Shown here one piece after another: positions 6,860 through 21,064 of a stretch of DNA of 25,256 nt. Both the position numbers and the translations under genes were made by a program. Every line of letters begins with the position of its first letter. The first letter of the stretch is position 1. This stretch comes from Candidatus Woesearchaeota archaeon (GTDB lineage: Archaea; Nanobdellota; Nanobdellia; SCGC-AAA011-G17; PNOQ01). Under the pieces are notes generated by a model. The model worked only from the letters and a program-made list of their open reading frames with translations. It did not search any database and was not told the origin of the DNA. The stretch spans positions 1 through 25,256 of the forward strand of contig JBDRML010000038.1 in NCBI GenBank assembly GCA_043812195.1. Reading direction: 5' to 3'.

Positions 6860-7129
6860 TTAATGTTTTAATCTAAAATCCTCAAATCTTTTTTCAATCT
6901 CAATAACTTCCACATTAACAGTTTTAACCATAGCTGTAGGATGCTTAGTCCTAATAATCCTAATAACATCATCTATATTTTCTCTACTGCCATCAAAAAC
7001 TGCCTCAACACCACCATTTAAATTCCTAACATAACCCTTTAGTCCTAACTTAATCGCATTATCATAAACAAAGTATCTAAACCCAACACCCTGTACTTTT
7101 CCCATGATTAAAGCCTTGATTTGGACCAT
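6860..7129 (-). CDS. acyP: Acylphosphatase
   Basis: GKVQGVGFR and GYVRN signature motifs, 89 aa. Confidence 0.95.
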   Translation of the reverse strand: MVQIKALIMGKVQGVGFRYFVYDNAIKLGLKGYVRNLNGGVEAVFDGSRENIDDVIRIIRTKHPTAMVKTVNVEVIEIEKRFEDFRLKH

Positions 7130-7186
7130 AAATATGTATAAACATACTAATATTTAAATTATTAGAAAGTCCCAATTTATAGAAAA

Positions 7187-7360
7187 ATGGATAAAAAAAT
7201 AAGATTTTGTGATTATAGTTGTCCGTATATTAAATTTAATGAAAAACCAGCACCATGTCGCACTTTTGATGTAATTTATTGTACAAAATATAAAGTAGAA
7301 AGAGACAAAGGAGCAATATGTTTAGATCATGTAAGAAATAGGTTAGAAGATAAAGTATAA
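7187..7360 (+). CDS. Small Cys-rich hypothetical protein (57 aa), possible metal-binding
   Basis: Absent from ORF track. MDKKIRFCDYSCPYIKFNEKPAPCRTFDVIYCTKYKVERDKGAICLDHVRNRLEDKV*; divergent from acyP with TTTAAA box upstream. Confidence 0.7.
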   Translation: MDKKIRFCDYSCPYIKFNEKPAPCRTFDVIYCTKYKVERDKGAICLDHVRNRLEDKV

Positions 7361-7371
7361 AGCCTCAGGAG
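7359..7371 (-). repeat. Copy A of tRNA-Thr(TGT) 3' end (att-like), distal island boundary
   Basis: AAAGCCTCAGGAG identical (13 bp) to 10293-10305. Confidence 0.8.
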
Positions 7372-7509
7372 AGTCTTCAACATAGAAGTTCAAGTTCTAA
7401 GGGTAAAAAAGCGTTAGAGTTTATAAAGACTACTATTTTATTAGAATTCTCCCAATGTTTGATTATGTATCACACTTAAAGAGCAATCTATTAATTATTT
7501 TATCTGCCA

Positions 7510-7989
7510 TTATCTTTTCCTCTTTCCTGTTAATCTATGGAGCTCCCAAGAAATTAATCCTCCAATAACAACAATTGCTATTATTAGTATTATAAGATAT
7601 ATTTTTATCTGGGCCATCTCAGAACTTTTAACATTAAAATTCGCACTAACTTCTTCTTTTTCATTTACTATTACTCCTATTGTATATATTCCTGCAGGAG
7701 TTTCTTCAGGAACTTTAATTGAGGATAAAAAAGAGGCTTGAGTTTCAACAGCTTTTAACTCTCTTCTAGAATTAAGTATTATACTTCCTTTTTTAAGTTG
7801 ATAATCTAATTGAATGTCATGTCTTCCAGCTTTTTCAATGTTTTTAATTGCGATTTGAAATTGTAGTGTTTCTCCTGCTTGTATTTCTTGATATTTATCT
7901 GGGATTGTCACAGAGAGTTCAAATGCAGAGATAAGTTGTGAAATTAAAAGAATTACAATGAAGACAGAAAATATAATTTTTCTCTTCAT
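7510..7989 (-). CDS. Small membrane-anchored protein with Ig-like domain
   Basis: Signal peptide, beta-rich domain (IKVPEETPAGIYTIGV), C-terminal TM; GGAG SD upstream. Confidence 0.8.
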   Translation of the reverse strand: MKRKIIFSVFIVILLISQLISAFELSVTIPDKYQEIQAGETLQFQIAIKNIEKAGRHDIQLDYQLKKGSIILNSRRELKAVETQASFLSSIKVPEETPAGIYTIGVIVNEKEEVSANFNVKSSEMAQIKIYLIILIIAIVVIGGLISWELHRLTGKRKR

Positions 7990-8197
7990 TTTTTACTCCT
8001 TTCCCCAGAATTTTTACTTAAAACTCTGAGTTTTTTAGAAATTAAAATAAAGAAAATAACAAAAGATAATCCTACGATAAACATTGTAGAAAGAACAATC
8101 AATAAAAACTCACTCTCTAACTTATCTGAGGGGGAAAACACCTCTTCTTTTGATTTAATACTTACTAAGACCCAAAAATTATTTTCCTCTTTATCAT
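7986..8197 (-). pseudogene. Frameshifted/internally deleted membrane-protein gene
   Basis: ATG at 8197 after GAGG reads MIKRKIIFGS*; one extra T in the T5 run gives MIKRKIIFWVLVSIKSKEEVFSPSDKLESEFLLIVLSTMFIVGLSFVIFFILISKKLRVLSKNSGERSKK*, whose stop overlaps the next ATG (ATGA). Confidence 0.55.
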
Positions 8198-8308
8198 TAT
8201 TAACCTCAAGATAAAATTTATATTGATAATATTTAAATCTTTTTAATTGTTGCCTGCTGATTACAAATCATTTAAAGAATATTATGGAAAGTAGACCAAA
8301 AAATAGAT

Positions 8309-8346
8309 TTACCCTTTAATACATCGCTTATATAAATAAAGGGTAA
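8309..8346. repeat. 38-bp palindromic site left of fic
   Basis: TTACCCTTTA-N18-TAAAGGGTAA, perfect 10-bp arms, immediately upstream of TTTATAAA TATA box (8349-8356). Confidence 0.85.
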
Positions 8347-8377
8347 AGTTTATAAATAAGTAAAACATCTAAATAAT

Positions 8378-9385
8378 ATGGCATACATTTACAAAAAAAC
8401 TATTAATAATAAATCATATTATTACTTAAGAATCTCAAAAACCATTAAAGATAAAACTATCGTAAAAGATATAGCTTATTTAGGCAATGATCCAAAACAA
8501 ATCGAACCAAAACTAGAAAAGTTGTCATCTATTTATAAAAATGAAATAAAAAAATCATATAAAAATATAAATAAATTTATACAAGGAGAATATTATCTTA
8601 AAAAAATTAAAGGAAAAAAATTAAAGAAAGACCCTTATTTTGATAAAGAAATTTTAGAACAAATAGAAGCCATAAAATTACATTATAACAATCATTTTCT
8701 AAAACAAAACCAAATAACAATAAAAGAAGTATATAAACAATTTTTAATAGATTTTGCCTATAACACAACCTCTCTTGAAGGAAATACGATAACGTTACAA
8801 GAAGTCAATAAATTGTTAAGTGAAAATCTTACTCCAAAAAATAGAACGTTAAGAGAGATCTACGACTTAAAAAACACAGAAAAAGTTTTTTTTAATTTGT
8901 TAGACAAAAGAAATGCAATAAATCATGAGCTAATTAAAGAGATTCACAAAAATTTAATAGAAAACATTGATAACAGAACAGATTATAGAACTTTTGATTT
9001 GCATGTCTTTAAATCAAAATTTAAATCTTCTCCATTTCAATATATTAAAACAGACATAGATTTATTGTTAAAACTATACAAAAAATACGAGAAAAGATTA
9101 CACCCATTAGTTCTAGCAGCTATATTTCATCATAAATTTGAAGAGATACATCCTTTCGCCGATGGTAACGGTAGAACTGGAAGGATATTGATGAATTACA
9201 TTCTAATTAAAAATAGTTATCCCCCAATAATAATTAAAAAAATTAAAAGAGGAAAATATTTGGATTCACTAGGAAAAGCAGATAAATCAGGATTGGGCAA
9301 AATAGATTCTAATTCTTACAAAGAACTAGTTTCATACTTAAGTTCTGAAATGTTAGATAGCTACTGGAATTTATTCAACATATAA
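8378..9385 (+). CDS. fic: Fic-family protein (class II, AMP transferase) with N-terminal extension
   Basis: Catalytic motif HPFADGNGRTGR; inhibitory motif TTSLEGN upstream of the core. Confidence 0.93.
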   Translation: MAYIYKKTINNKSYYYLRISKTIKDKTIVKDIAYLGNDPKQIEPKLEKLSSIYKNEIKKSYKNINKFIQGEYYLKKIKGKKLKKDPYFDKEILEQIEAIKLHYNNHFLKQNQITIKEVYKQFLIDFAYNTTSLEGNTITLQEVNKLLSENLTPKNRTLREIYDLKNTEKVFFNLLDKRNAINHELIKEIHKNLIENIDNRTDYRTFDLHVFKSKFKSSPFQYIKTDIDLLLKLYKKYEKRLHPLVLAAIFHHKFEEIHPFADGNGRTGRILMNYILIKNSYPPIIIKKIKRGKYLDSLGKADKSGLGKIDSNSYKELVSYLSSEMLDSYWNLFNI

Positions 9386-9423
9386 TTACCCCTTAGATTT
9401 ATTTTATCAAGATTAAAGGGTAA
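9386..9423. repeat. 38-bp palindromic site right of fic
   Basis: TTACCCCTTA-N18-TAAAGGGTAA beginning at the base after the fic stop codon. Confidence 0.85.
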
Positions 9424-9467
9424 GCCTCAGGAGGGAGTTATCTCAAAGATATTATAGTGGAGGCTTA
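9421..9467 (-). repeat. Copy B of tRNA-Thr 3' end within a hairpin-capable site
   Basis: AAGCCTCAGGAGGGA (9422-9436) identical to 10294-10308; TAAGCCTC...GAGGCTTA 8-bp inverted repeat. Confidence 0.85.
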
Positions 9468-9516
9468 ATTAAAATTTATTTTGGTTAGAAAAAATAAAAG
9501 GATAAAATAAATTTAT

Positions 9517-9831
9517 TCAAAAATTCCAATAACCTTTTTGTCTAAGTTTTTCCATTTGTTCATCACTTAAAGGAACTCTTCCTCGGTATGCTGCTACGAC
9601 TTCATCGTTCTGATAAATTACGTCTCCTGAATCCCTTACCCTTATTTCTTCAATTCCACTAAAACTACCAACAAATGGTTCACTTGCAATATTTTTTAAA
9701 TTAATATATTTTTCAGGTTCAAAAGAATCAACCAAACCCTTTTCAGTGTATCTCTCTAAAACACCGCCTTTTTTTCTAGTAACGTCTACTTCAACTTCAA
9801 CGCCCAAAATATCTTTCGCATTTTTTGCCAT
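9517..9831 (-). CDS. Hypothetical protein (104 aa), cassette cargo
   Basis: ORF with GGGGG SD, BRE-TATA (GAAAGATTTATAAA) upstream and T-rich tract downstream. Confidence 0.8.
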   Translation of the reverse strand: MAKNAKDILGVEVEVDVTRKKGGVLERYTEKGLVDSFEPEKYINLKNIASEPFVGSFSGIEEIRVRDSGDVIYQNDEVVAAYRGRVPLSDEQMEKLRQKGYWNF

Positions 9832-9926
9832 TTTTCCCCCTTTAATACATAAATATGATACATTTATAGAGCATCTTTCCTTTATAAATCTTTCTATTCG
9901 TAACTACTTATAAGAAGTAAAAAATC

Positions 9927-9967
9927 AGCCTCGGGAGGAACTTATCAATTAATGGACATATGGGGCT
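9927..9967 (-). repeat. Copy C of tRNA-Thr 3' end within a related hairpin-capable site
   Basis: AGCCTCGGGAGG 11/12 to tRNA end; first 20 nt 17/20 identical to copy B including non-tRNA TTATC; ends in GGGGCT. Confidence 0.75.
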
Positions 9968-10013
9968 ATAGAAATGGGTGTGGGATTGACAAAAAAAGAA
10001 AAGAATTAATTAT

Positions 10014-10235
10014 TTAAAGTTTACGTTCGAGAGGGGAAATACGAACTTCATGAAATACAGATCTTTTATCAGCATTGATTATTAATCTATGTCTAACTTC
10101 GCTAACACGAAAACCTTGCAGTTCTTTGTCTTGTTGATCTACTTCATAAATATCTCCCTTTCTCGGGAGAACATCATCTTGAACATTTAAGATTATTCTT
10201 CCATTATTTGTATAAATCAAATCATATTCTATCAT
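10014..10235 (-). CDS. Hypothetical protein (~73 aa), cassette cargo
   Basis: ORF; ATG at 10235 preferred over TTG at 10247 because it follows a GGAGG SD; T-rich tract downstream. Confidence 0.75.
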   Translation of the reverse strand: MIEYDLIYTNNGRIILNVQDDVLPRKGDIYEVDQQDKELQGFRVSEVRHRLIINADKRSVFHEVRISPLERKL

Positions 10236-10294
10236 TTTATCCTCCAACCACCCAAATTAAGTATATACCAAAAACTTAAAAAGTTTACTAAAAA

Positions 10295-10379
10295 AGCCTC
10301 AGGAGGGATTCGAACCCCCGACCTGCTGATATCTTGAATTTTTTACAAGTCAGCTGCTCTACCGCTGAGCCACTGAGGC
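10295..10379 (-). tRNA. tRNA-Thr(TGT) with 13-nt intron at 37/38
   Basis: GCCTCAG/CTGAGGC acceptor stem, GCTGA/TCAGC anticodon stem, CT-TGT-A, intron AAAAATTCAAGAT with perfect CTTG/CAAG central helix, GGGGG-TTCGAAT-CCCTC T arm. Confidence 0.95.
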
Positions 10380-10420
10380 CTAACACAAAAATACAGTCAA
10401 AAACATACTTAAAAACTTTT

Positions 10421-10990
10421 CTACTTTCTATAAAACATTCTAATTTCAAATGATTGCAAAGGATAAATTTTACTTAAAGCACCCTTAAGAGACTTCTGTA
10501 AAGTATATCCAATGATAGAATCATACATCTCACTAACAGTTTTTTTCTTAAATTCACCTTCAACTAATTTTTTCAATTCTGCTTTCATACCCTTAGATAA
10601 TTGACCTTGAACTTTAGATTTAGTAACAAAAAATACTTTAAAAACACAATCAACACCATCTTTAGATTTTAATTTATAACTAATATCTAACTTACTTTTA
10701 CCCTTTCTTACCAATCTTTTTAAATAAGAACTTAAAACATAATAACCAATAGGTTCAGCTATTGCCTTGCCTTCTACAACTTTCTTTACTTCAAAAACCA
10801 ATCTAACATTAGGATTTCTACTCTTAGATACAATCATCATATCAACATTCAACCTTTTACCAATCAAATTACTTTCTTCAGAAACATAACTCTCTCCAAC
10901 TTGAGAGCCCCCAAACTCTTTAGATACATAAATTTCATACCATTTCTTTTTCTTCTTAGTTAATTGAACTCTTTTCCTTTGACTAGCCAT
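10421..10990 (-). CDS. rps3ae: 30S ribosomal protein S3Ae (eS1)
   Basis: KKKWYEIY...FG...VGE, LKRLVRKGKSKLD, SKIYPL...EIR motifs; operon context. Confidence 0.92.
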   Translation of the reverse strand: MASQRKRVQLTKKKKKWYEIYVSKEFGGSQVGESYVSEESNLIGKRLNVDMMIVSKSRNPNVRLVFEVKKVVEGKAIAEPIGYYVLSSYLKRLVRKGKSKLDISYKLKSKDGVDCVFKVFFVTKSKVQGQLSKGMKAELKKLVEGEFKKKTVSEMYDSIIGYTLQKSLKGALSKIYPLQSFEIRMFYRK

Positions 10991-19574: not shown

Positions 19575-19758
19575 ATTAATAAAATTAAAACTTAAACAGA
19601 GTTTTTAAATGTTTTCTATATAAATTTATTCATCTATTTATTATTTTATTTATTTCCTTTTTTAAATGTAACCAGCCAACATTAAGAAAATTATCTCTTT
19701 TGCTATTGCTTCTCATCTTAACAAAAAAATTATACAATGCAGTTTTACAAAAAATATG

Positions 19759-20991
19759 CTACTCTAGGCGCTTAAGAAGAATTATATCACTGCCTTTTGT
19801 AATTGAATTTTCTAATAAAATAGAGTTTCCAGACTCCAAACTTCTTGTGCTATCATACATAGTTATTTTACCTAATTTAAATTCCGCAAATGTTGAATGA
19901 GAATATGACCAAAAAATCCTATTAATGATAAAACCGCCACCTTCTAACACCCCGGCTTCTTTAAGAGCTTCACCTATTGCCATATGTTCTTTAACATTAT
20001 AAGTTGTTCCTTTCAGACCGTTTTTTGCTAAAATACTAACCATCTCTTGTGTGGTTAACCCATTACAATAATTATTTAATCTTGTTCCAGCTTTCTGGGC
20101 TATAGTATAAACTGTCTCTTTTTTACCAAAAAATGAGTTAACAGCTGAACCAATTGCGCAATAACCGCAATCACCGGGAACTACGCTCGAAACAGTAATA
20201 GATTCAACTAAATTTTTCTGCTGTAGATTTAATCTTGTACTAAATTCCCCCCCATTCATCAAAAATTTAACCATGCCTCCAATTCCTCTTAAATAACGAG
20301 CCTGACGTAAAGCCTTAAACCATTGTCCTAAACTCCCAAACCGGGAAATTCCAACTGCAGGTGCCATCTCCATTTGAGCATTTTCATAACCCCCTAAAGG
20401 CCTAATAATACCTGGATATTCATAAGCACCATTTACATCCCCCAATAAATCATTTCCTGCTTCACTAAAAATATTTTCTTGCAAATTCTGATTCGACTCT
20501 CCTCCAGAATATAATTCTCTTATTCTACTCCAATCATCATTAGTACTTTCATCTTGTGATCCGCTTGGATCCACATATTTCAAAGGATTATTTCCAACAT
20601 AAGCATAAGGACTTACACTAGAACTAAATACTGGATCTACAGAAATAAATCTAGAAATAGAAGGATCATAATATCTAGCTCCATAATAATATAAATCTTC
20701 ATCTTCTTCCTGTCCTGTAAATTTATAATTATTACTTAATCCTTCTTTACTTCCTTTCTCATCAAAATCTTCTCCAAAAGGATATTGAACATTTTTAGAA
20801 ATAATTTCTCCATCTTCATTAGTTACTATTTTATTACTTCCTAAAAAATCTTGATTATAATAAGTAATATCATCTCCTTCCTTACTAGCAACTAATCCAT
20901 TAGCTCCATATACATATATCTTTTCTTCAGCAAGAACAGATATAGGCATAGCAATAACTAACAAAATTATAAAGATCACGCTCTTTTTCAT
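19759..20991 (-). CDS. Secreted RHS repeat-associated core protein with papain/C39-like C-terminal domain
   Basis: Signal peptide; YYNQDFLGS, YPFGE, YKFTGQEEDEDLYYYGARYYDPSISRFISVDP, YAYVGNNPLKYVDPSG; C-terminal GDCGYCA...HSTF...YDS. Confidence 0.85.
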   Translation of the reverse strand: MKKSVIFIILLVIAMPISVLAEEKIYVYGANGLVASKEGDDITYYNQDFLGSNKIVTNEDGEIISKNVQYPFGEDFDEKGSKEGLSNNYKFTGQEEDEDLYYYGARYYDPSISRFISVDPVFSSSVSPYAYVGNNPLKYVDPSGSQDESTNDDWSRIRELYSGGESNQNLQENIFSEAGNDLLGDVNGAYEYPGIIRPLGGYENAQMEMAPAVGISRFGSLGQWFKALRQARYLRGIGGMVKFLMNGGEFSTRLNLQQKNLVESITVSSVVPGDCGYCAIGSAVNSFFGKKETVYTIAQKAGTRLNNYCNGLTTQEMVSILAKNGLKGTTYNVKEHMAIGEALKEAGVLEGGGFIINRIFWSYSHSTFAEFKLGKITMYDSTRSLESGNSILLENSITKGSDIILLKRLE

Positions 20992-21064
20992 AATTAAATA
21001 TAAGAATTAAAGATATATAAAACTAACCAAAAACCTTATTAATCTAATTCACAATTTTCATTTA

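Follow-up and report, generated by a model that had tools for sequence, protein, structure and literature searches.

How does the 3′ end of one tRNA gene come to be repeated, always in the same direction, across the space between two conserved genes of an archaeal chromosome, and what do the pieces of DNA between the repeats represent? We consider this question for the tRNA-Thr(TGT) gene of a Candidatus Woesearchaeota archaeon (assembly GCA_043812195.1; G000 in our genome set), whose genome comprises 938 kb in 45 contigs with 29% GC and is estimated to be 90% complete. The window analysed here is the entire 25,256-bp contig that carries the gene (JBDRML010000038.1, C38 in our numbering). Between this tRNA, which lies next to the gene for ribosomal protein S3Ae (rps3ae), and an acylphosphatase gene are three units, A, B and C, each closed at its far end by a copy of the tRNA end (R1, R2 and R3 respectively; Table 1), which a preliminary description read as an integron-like array of single-gene cassettes. 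The explanation that we favour, and to which we give about even credence, is that such units are miniature non-autonomous gene cassettes which an enzyme supplied in trans inserts at the 3′ ends of tRNAs.

The repeated segment is the last 15 nt of the tRNA gene (plus strand 10294-10308; AAGCCTCAGGAGGGA as read on that strand). When up to three mismatches are allowed this 15-mer matches the window four times, always on the plus strand: at 10294, which is the tRNA itself (0 mismatches), and at 9926 (3), 9422 (0) and 7360 (2). This compares with 0.29 matches expected, and none of 100 shuffled sequences contained four or more. The start-to-start spacings of the tRNA end and its successive copies are 368, 504 and 2062 bp, so that the direct copies originally said to divide the region into pieces of about 368, 504 and 2060 bp are indeed there.

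One of these copies is also a breakpoint between strains. When metagenome contigs were scanned with the S3Ae protein, a single one was returned (from JGI; L056), the sole close variant contig that we compared; over 9.3 kb on the side of rps3ae its identity to the window is 99.56%. In this contig the tRNA is joined directly to the sequence that follows the copy at 9422, units A and B (857 bp) being absent, and what the two alignment blocks have in common is precisely the 15 nt of R2. The same joint, leading from 9421 to 10294 with 872 letters skipped and 15 letters that fit both sides, occurs in the Logan contigs of three of four groundwater runs (X2, X3 and X4), which belong to different studies; joints with sides of 21 letters were ignored, as they come from other organisms. 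Units A and B together are a strain polymorphism whose breakpoint lies exactly in the repeat, and the empty-site junctions that an inserted array should leave in other strains are present both in the variant contig and in these three runs. No run has contigs that span all of A and B; X1 has a low-depth piece within 9496-9679 only, from which we draw no inference.

Two alleles do not reveal the polarity of such a change, and the short form is the one found in three of the four runs and in the JGI contig, both of which would suit a deletion from an ancestral filled form. The tRNA-end-like copies, each of which stands 50-80 nt after an open reading frame (ORF) on the strand of the tRNA, might then be functional 3′ signals of small genes, such as terminator or processing mimics, and the short form would have arisen by slippage or short-homology recombination between the 15-nt copies. 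We consider this very unlikely, since it does not account for the match of each copy to its own neighbouring tRNA (Thr, Glu or Ser, as described below), always in the same frame, since the copies also include 1-5 nt of the flank that follows the tRNA, and since some duplication of the tRNA end would still be needed to make them. The polymorphism is more probably an insertion than a deletion.

The pattern is not confined to tRNA-Thr. We counted exact copies of at least 11 nt of the 3′ tail of each of 28 tRNAs of the genome within 5 kb, and found seven that lie downstream in direct orientation, at four of the 28 tRNAs, compared with none upstream in direct orientation and none in inverted orientation either downstream or upstream. 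The three further arrays, at tRNA-Glu(CTC), at tRNA-Ser(TGA) and at a tRNA on contig C29, consist of units of 0.34-0.70 kb whose cargo comprises a 66-aa ORF, a 72-aa ORF, a Cys-rich 112-aa ORF, a ParE-like toxin (at tRNA-Ser) and a nucleotidyltransferase-like ORF. Outside this genome, the tRNA-Thr of one of 18 relatives (G022; L047, C19:10680-11908) is followed after 720 bp by a 15-nt copy of its end, the two enclosing two small ORFs. Across the arrays, eight of nine units measure 0.35-0.72 kb and share one build: a short upstream spacer or promoter, an ORF, 50-80 nt and the repeat.

The frame of the repeats was read by eye, the ends given by ARAGORN being 1-3 nt off for three of the tRNAs. 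In all nine copies, one of them from G022, identity starts at the first base of the 3′ strand of the T-stem, with the preceding loop base matching as well in two of the nine, and it ends 0-5 nt beyond the discriminator, in the flank of the gene and without CCA, so that the event must have happened at the level of DNA. The Thr, Glu and Ser cores share nothing else, and what sets the frame of the duplication is apparently the shape of the tRNA, not a sequence common to them.

A second kind of evidence comes from R1. The 45 nt that adjoin it towards the tRNA (9941-9985) resemble a site on contig C1 with a local score of 28, which 0 of 500 shuffles reach. The C1 site is next to a tRNA-Thr-like core, in a place that has no tRNA-Thr and where another unit, carrying other genes, ends; a pattern built from the R1 and C1 sites is present in one of 240 genomes of the order, namely the host genome. 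This is the one significant comparison among those made, as the flanks of R1 and R2, and those of R3 and a further copy on contig C15, are no more alike than shuffles. The arm of R1 having a relative beside a tRNA-Thr-like core elsewhere, the core can travel with a cassette arm; this suggests that arm and core form a portable site, and such a site favours a recombinase that would act in trans on a cassette-borne site and on the tRNA end. Moreover, R1 has mismatches at 3 of 15 positions while R2 has none and the strains are close, so R1 can hardly have been made from this tRNA, and A and B more likely arrived ready-made. The sequential capture of single genes that had been proposed for the locus is therefore upheld in part: the breakpoint at a repeat and the units without an enzyme stand, whereas A and B have moved only together and R1 looks imported.

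The C15 copy is a stand-alone, intergenic one (C15:19036-19050; L005 7037-7051), which carries the same C-to-T variant as R3 and a 14-nt exact stretch, CTCTCCTGAGGCTT; no tRNA is nearby, and its flanks are not significantly like those of R3.

The same frame and nearly the same length (14-16 nt, with one copy of 18) at five tRNA genes of unrelated sequence would also be expected of a casposon-like system, in which a transposase supplied in trans cuts the two strands next to the T-loop at positions staggered by 14-15 nt, and the repeats are target-site duplications rather than att sites. Passages of PMC5137440 describe a case close to the pattern seen here, the casposase of A. boonei, which makes a 15-bp duplication overlapping the 3′ end of a tRNA-Pro, needs a segment of the T-loop and permits elements to stand in tandem with copies of the duplicated segment between them. 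In three of ten units, all of them at other tRNAs, terminal inverted repeats immediately within the direct repeats are likewise significant: Ser_1 (15/16 nt; 0/500 shuffles), C29_1 (10/10 nt; 3/500) and Glu_3 (2/500). However, the units of the window have no significant inverted ends (0.70 for A, 0.16 for B, 0.70 for A and B together and 0.12 for C), and Cas1 (PF01867) was found in none of 25 family genomes, including that of the host with its 90% completeness. To our knowledge no other transposase family makes duplications this long, which also counts against the proposal, and a tRNA-Thr-like core that accompanies a cassette arm at a place without tRNA-Thr, as at the C1 site, would not be expected of pure target duplication. 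We therefore hold a casposon-like origin to be unlikely.

The content of the two small units agrees with the preliminary description, in which each held one intact ORF, oriented like the tRNA and provided with signals of its own; we find a GGAGG in A, a promoter box in B and a T-run in both. The ORF of unit A (10014-10247) encodes 73-77 aa, or 73 aa from the ATG at 10235, which is preceded by the GGAGG; both GGAGG and ATG fall 46-58 nt after the tRNA, and the T-run follows the stop codon. In a word-index search of 5.8 billion clustered proteins the 73-aa protein matched itself only. It is predicted to fold as a small beta barrel (AlphaFold2, predicted local distance difference test (pLDDT) 69.5), a model that has no match in the PDB at E <= 0.001 and retrieves unnamed clusters only from the ESM Atlas. 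The ORF of unit B (9517-9831, 104 aa) is preceded by the consensus promoter box of the genome, at 9879-9894, and a T-run follows its stop codon. Again the word-index search gave a self match only; when 1.84 billion representatives were scanned in full with HMMER, two proteins came up, of which one is a plausible full-length relative (P0004; 113 aa, 40% identity, E 2.8e-4) and the other a weak and partial match. A scan of genome contigs with the two-sequence alignment of this ORF and its relative found no further relatives, and its structure was modelled poorly (pLDDT 43.5).

The promoter architecture in question, TAAGTGGTTAC, about 5 nt and GAAAGATTTATAAAGG, occurs at 9878-9911 of the window and at nine other places in the genome, where it stands before many ordinary genes; it precedes the cassette genes both of unit B and of the first tRNA-Glu unit. 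A conserved 40-nt piece beside R1, which has high depth in the runs, had been considered as an arm of the element and was set aside, being this general promoter consensus, with 10 copies mostly at ordinary genes. We also dropped the idea that each repeat is the 3′ arm of a tRNA-like palindrome of about 45 nt, as stems equal to those observed turn up in 9-99% of trials with random genomic windows, and just two of ten repeat sites have an exact inverted arm (7-8 nt).

No recombinase is encoded in the window by a search with PF00589, as the preliminary description had it, and all matches in the genome are on other contigs: four to PF00589 (tyrosine recombinase), and one each to PF00239 (serine recombinase), PF01797 (Y1 transposase) and PF07282 (TnpB). 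The four tyrosine recombinases are the stand-alone enzymes that an array of this kind would call for. They are encoded on C36 (264 aa), C1 (208 aa), C15 (420 aa) and C45 (399 aa). All are Xer-like: on the integron-integrase model TIGR02249, whose cut-off is 265, they score 42-168 bits, and every one scores better on the archaeal XerA model, with none above the cut-off of any family; two of them (420 and 399 aa) end in a C-terminal CxxC...CxxC tail. PF00589 has no match in any unit, nor in the arrays on C4, C16 and C29, and since all four matches of the genome are on other contigs no decayed integrase is visible.

This bears on the possibility that larger, integrase-bearing elements (proviruses or islands like tycheposons) repeatedly entered at the tRNA and were whittled down by deletion. 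In the tRNA-anchored islands of Prochlorococcus, as a preprint (bioRxiv 10.1101/2020.12.28.424599) describes them, partial tRNAs stand between stacked elements and also occur scattered, along with degenerated remnants, and archaeal tRNA elements usually measure 9-23 kb according to passages of PMC9897764; unit C is composite and R3 is degenerate, as such remnants would be. However, the strains differ by exactly 872 bp beside a flank that is 99.56% identical, so that an element would have had little time to integrate and then lose its interior by a clean deletion, and the eight units of 0.35-0.72 kb hold intact ORFs and not pseudogenes. There is no integrase fragment near any of the four arrays, and no large element at tRNA-Thr in 18 relatives in which exact repeats of at least 11 nt were sought. 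We find an origin by decay distinctly unlikely. The compact build, the sub-kilobase size of eight of the nine units and the lack of integrase fragments point to small modules that were inserted as such, and not to eroded large elements. The cargo includes types that are typical of mobile islets, namely Fic in unit C and the ParE-like toxin at tRNA-Ser.

In the explanation that we favour, insertion of gene cassettes in trans, the region would be a small flexible island built by insertion at one fixed point of the tRNA-Thr gene. Each insertion would leave the tRNA intact and place a second copy of 14-15 nt at the far end of the insert, the copied segment running from the first base of the 3′ strand of the T-stem to 1-3 nt past the discriminator, and newer inserts would push older ones outward. 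The latest step would be the 872-bp one, in which A and B entered as a single block with two orphan genes and an older, diverged junction (R1) between them, and this block is still polymorphic among strains. The enzyme would not be encoded by the cassettes; it would most likely be one of the four Xer-like tyrosine recombinases, acting in trans, presumably through a circular intermediate, on a cassette-borne site that includes the tRNA-end core. The same process would have acted at three other tRNAs of the host genome.

The outer part of the region is more complicated, and strains also differ there. A block comprising the 51-aa and 159-aa ORFs, R3 and the Cys-rich ORF (7173-8243) is replaced in the variant contig and in run X3 by a 46-nt perfect palindrome (L056:11875-11921; GTAACCGTTTAGCTGCTTAGG, a 5-nt loop, then the complement), and is present in X1, X2 and X4. 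Neither of its breakpoints is at a copy of the tRNA end. One record of X2 (record 12) covers 6860-7674, yet X2 has the joint that lacks A and B, and the two strain differences are therefore independent. In the variant the Fic part abuts the tRNA at 97.7% identity, and no tRNA-end repeat is present at all. Two places in the genome are related to the palindrome, C4:39917-39964 and C16:61901-61971, one of which lies inside the tRNA-Ser unit, 67 nt before its distal repeat.

Among all unit ORFs Fic is the only one with paralogues in its own genome (tblastn), and apart from Fic and the sub-threshold matches of the 159-aa ORF, Pfam has nothing for the other window ORFs scanned in the unit region. 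The Cys-rich ORF, which had been taken for a host gene that once abutted the tRNA, does stop at the outermost repeat; the variant lacks it, which shows that it is no fixed host gene of that kind. It has weak relatives in five of 24 family genomes, none on a contig with tRNA-Thr, and in two of them the relative starts 10-12 nt after tRNA-Ser(GGA) on the same strand (L085 1386-1620 in G024; L088 1391-1620 in G011), where no repeat of the end of this tRNA occurs within 1.6 kb.

A further strain difference is at 19619-21022 of the window, where the gene of a 410-aa secreted protein resembling the RHS core is absent from the variant contig, with a 3-nt overlap at the junction and no flanking repeat. 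Judged by eye, proteins that start like it are encoded on C15 (L005 10782-12041, 419 aa) and C45 (L060 4854-6002, 382 aa).

Several of our results speak against cassette insertion in trans, or at least against parts of it. Presence and absence in strains follow the repeats for A and B and do not follow them for R3, which is not a breakpoint and lies inside 7173-8243, and the two differences that lack tRNA-end repeats, at 7173-8243 and at 19619-21022, mean that gene-sized differences arise by other routes too. Neither A nor B occurs by itself in our data, the two always making up one step of 872 bp. No core is common to the four target tRNAs, nor would one expect a single tyrosine recombinase with sequence specificity to act on all of them; the constant frame and the length of 14-15 nt look like a target-site duplication, and the significant terminal inverted repeats of three of the ten units, at other tRNAs, are a trait of transposons. 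Against a lenient control the hairpins at the repeats lack significance. The Logan contigs, which cannot show rare forms, contain neither a circular junction nor a product of excision, and no copy resembling an attP is found in IMG/VR, where the 15-mer matches 20 contigs, none convincingly, as no match is in a tRNA or beside anything relevant and the GC of these contigs is 0.35-0.65 against 0.29 here. Finally, the pattern is rare in relatives, being found at one of 18 tRNA-Thr loci by exact repeats of at least 11 nt, a single case in 263 kb.

Table 1. Features of the tRNA-Thr(TGT) locus (window positions unless a contig is named), of the arrays at other tRNAs and of the repeats on contig C1.
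Feature	Coordinates	Strand	Support	Remark
tRNA-Thr(TGT), 13-nt intron	10294..10380	-	ARAGORN (introns allowed); Rfam RF00005, 62.6 bits	array anchor
S3Ae ribosomal protein gene (rps3ae)	10421..10990	-	Pfam, 109.5 bits	proximal stable flank; variant protein 100% identical
Unit A	9941..10293	-		353 bp, one orphan ORF
R1	9926..9940	-		degenerate tRNA-end copy (12/15)
Unit B	9437..9925	-		489 bp, one orphan ORF
R2	9422..9436	-		perfect tRNA-end copy (15/15), strain breakpoint
Unit C	7375..9421	-		2047 bp, older, composite
Fic/DOC gene	8378-9385	+	Pfam Fic, 73.6 bits	unit C; antisense to tRNA
51-aa membrane ORF	7986-8141	-		unit C
159-aa secreted/membrane ORF	7510-7989	-	sub-threshold Pfam matches only	unit C
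R3	7360..7374	-		outermost tRNA-end copy (13/15; exact run 7359-7371), no strain breakpoint
Cys-rich 57-aa ORF	7187..7360	+		stop codon 7358-7360 overlaps R3 start
Strain-variable block	7173..8243	.		51-aa and 159-aa ORFs, R3, Cys-rich ORF
Acylphosphatase gene	6860..7129	-	Pfam, 90.3 bits	distal stable flank; 99.7% identical in variant
Array at tRNA-Glu(CTC)	C4 (L057, C4:8001-11000)			three copies
Array at tRNA-Ser(TGA)	C16 (L058, C16:61001-63000)			one copy
Array at tRNA C29:76165-76283	C29 (L059, C29:76001-78000)			one copy
Helicase-gene-end copies	C1:37361-37433, 38658-38730, about 43390, 45770-45841, 51700-51765			first two = L006 6361-6431, 7658-7728

Turning to the surroundings of the array, the host is the sole member of its genus among species representatives, and its closest S3Ae protein is 49% identical. 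The neighbourhood of rps3ae and tRNA-Thr is kept in 19 of the 29 loci of relatives that we scanned. In many family genomes tRNA-Val(GAC) lies 2 to about 2080 bp downstream of tRNA-Thr(TGT) (loci L012-L034 and L038-L055); the gaps of 0.4-2 kb between these two tRNAs in relatives hold small ORFs and no exact tRNA-end repeat. By short blastn, tRNA-Val(GAC) was not found in the host genome.

Contig C1, which carries the relative of R1, has a repeat system of its own. A hairpin module of about 24 nt with the core AGCGAGA.GT.TCTCGCGCTCTC occurs in 19 copies right after stop codons, at C1:26412-52193 (partly L006, which is C1:31000-46000), C1:66918-69751 and C34:5194. Fifteen of those on C1 share one orientation within 26 kb and are 315-4959 bp apart, and the genes between them are nearly all co-oriented. 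No tyrosine recombinase lies inside the stretch C1:26412-52193, and a canonical attC would be longer than this module. A terminal piece of about 66 nt of the gene of a 1061-aa helicase-like protein, which by eye bears an intein, recurs at least five times downstream, each time followed by a hairpin module, and one of these copies belongs to a 106-aa C-terminal fragment. The first unit between helicase-end copies (1.29 kb, with two membrane or secreted ORFs) ends in the tRNA-Thr-like site related to R1. The stretch with the hairpin modules looks like a second, larger cassette-type array.

A bolder proposal can be built on these observations, in which gene capture would work as in integrons but with components of another kind: one host enzyme in trans would insert and remove single-gene modules (0.35-0.9 kb) where T-loop and T-stem meet in several tRNA genes, and would read the shape of the end of a tRNA gene and not its sequence, while the hairpin array of C1 might serve this system, or a related one, as its second platform. 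We regard this as rather doubtful. Few routes of gene uptake are known in archaea with genomes below 1 Mb, and if single genes are slotted in and out at tRNAs in trans this would explain variation in gene content between strains of such organisms, and would constitute a third kind of cassette platform beside integrons and arrays of the casposon or CRISPR type. The fixed frame beside the T-loop also bears on how insertion enzymes that target tRNAs recognise their target and on how arrays of alternating repeats and inserts arise. The system lends itself to direct testing: its substrates would be an 85-bp tRNA gene and an 872-bp circle, with only four candidate tyrosine recombinases.

How does the locus compare with systems already known? 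That tRNA genes serve as entry sites, and that elements leave partial tRNA copies at their far ends and stack, is textbook knowledge, as passages of PMC9897764 set out. The tRNA-anchored islands, namely the tycheposon islands of Prochlorococcus and archaeal integrated elements such as PYG1, are like our array in their entry at a tRNA 3′ end, in the partial copies between stacked units, in the outward displacement of older units by newer ones, in strain variation and in the presence of remnants. Unlike it, they measure several to tens of kb, bear integrases and have repeats of about 40-44 bp, whereas eight of our nine units are of 0.35-0.72 kb, with one intact gene, no integrase or fragment of one, and a repeat of 14-15 nt whose frame is fixed, at four tRNAs. 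Of the features by which tRNA elements are recognised, direct repeats of the tRNA 3′ end beside an intact tRNA are present and an integrase inside the element is absent.

Cis-mobilizable elements (CIMEs) are flanked by att sites, have no recombination genes and are thought to depend on the enzyme of another element; they are bacterial, are derived from integrative and conjugative elements (ICEs) by deletion and stand in tandem with an ICE. Measured against this general concept of a CIME, the units resemble them in their att-like flanking copies and in lacking an enzyme, and differ in that no parent element stands beside the array and that they are far smaller. Integrase-less elements are also stacked in tandem at dif by host Xer recombinases in the case of IMEX, and all four tyrosine recombinases of our host are Xer-like; the target here, however, is a tRNA 3′ end and not dif. 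Casposons and mini-casposons, from passages of PMC5137440, share the 15-bp duplication at a tRNA 3′ end next to the T-loop and the tandem arrays; they are unlike the array in that there is no Cas1 in the 25 family genomes, no cargo of the PolB type in the window units by Pfam, and no significant inverted ends in those units.

Integrons remain as the comparison with which the locus was introduced. Integrons and clusters of attC sites without an integrase (CALINs) are reported in metagenome-assembled genomes of Archaea, including GTDB Nanoarchaeota, in passages of PMC9668308 that mention no tRNA, and the same source supports several likenesses: cassettes are small, mostly single-gene and of one orientation, each with a site at its 3′ end, and they enter at one site with the enzyme encoded outside them. 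That the array is a true integron or CALIN is nevertheless exceedingly improbable. The best recombinase of the genome reaches 168 bits against 265 on the integron-integrase model, the window itself encodes no recombinase, reading of the boundaries brought up neither GTTRRRY nor RYYYAAC cores (GTTRRRY at 9422-9470, 9926-9975 and 7360-7410), the sites are copies of the end of the neighbouring tRNA, and at least unit B has a predicted promoter box of its own. The array thus has no IntI, no attC structure or cores and apparently no expression driven by Pc, its entry site is a tRNA gene whose end the sites copy, and unit A has its GGAGG before the ATG as unit B has the consensus promoter. The integron analogue first suggested for the locus fails as an assignment to that class, and the label describes how the system might work, not what it is.

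In the open-access full-text literature our searches brought up no account of cassettes below one kilobase that lack an integrase and sit at tRNA genes of archaea. By analogy, the nearest known behaviours appear to be those of cis-mobilizable elements and integron cassettes. What is distinctive here is the scale of one gene in 0.35-0.7 kb, the lack of any enzyme gene or fragment of one, the fixed frame of 14-15 nt at unrelated tRNAs, and the occurrence of all this at four tRNAs of one tiny genome.

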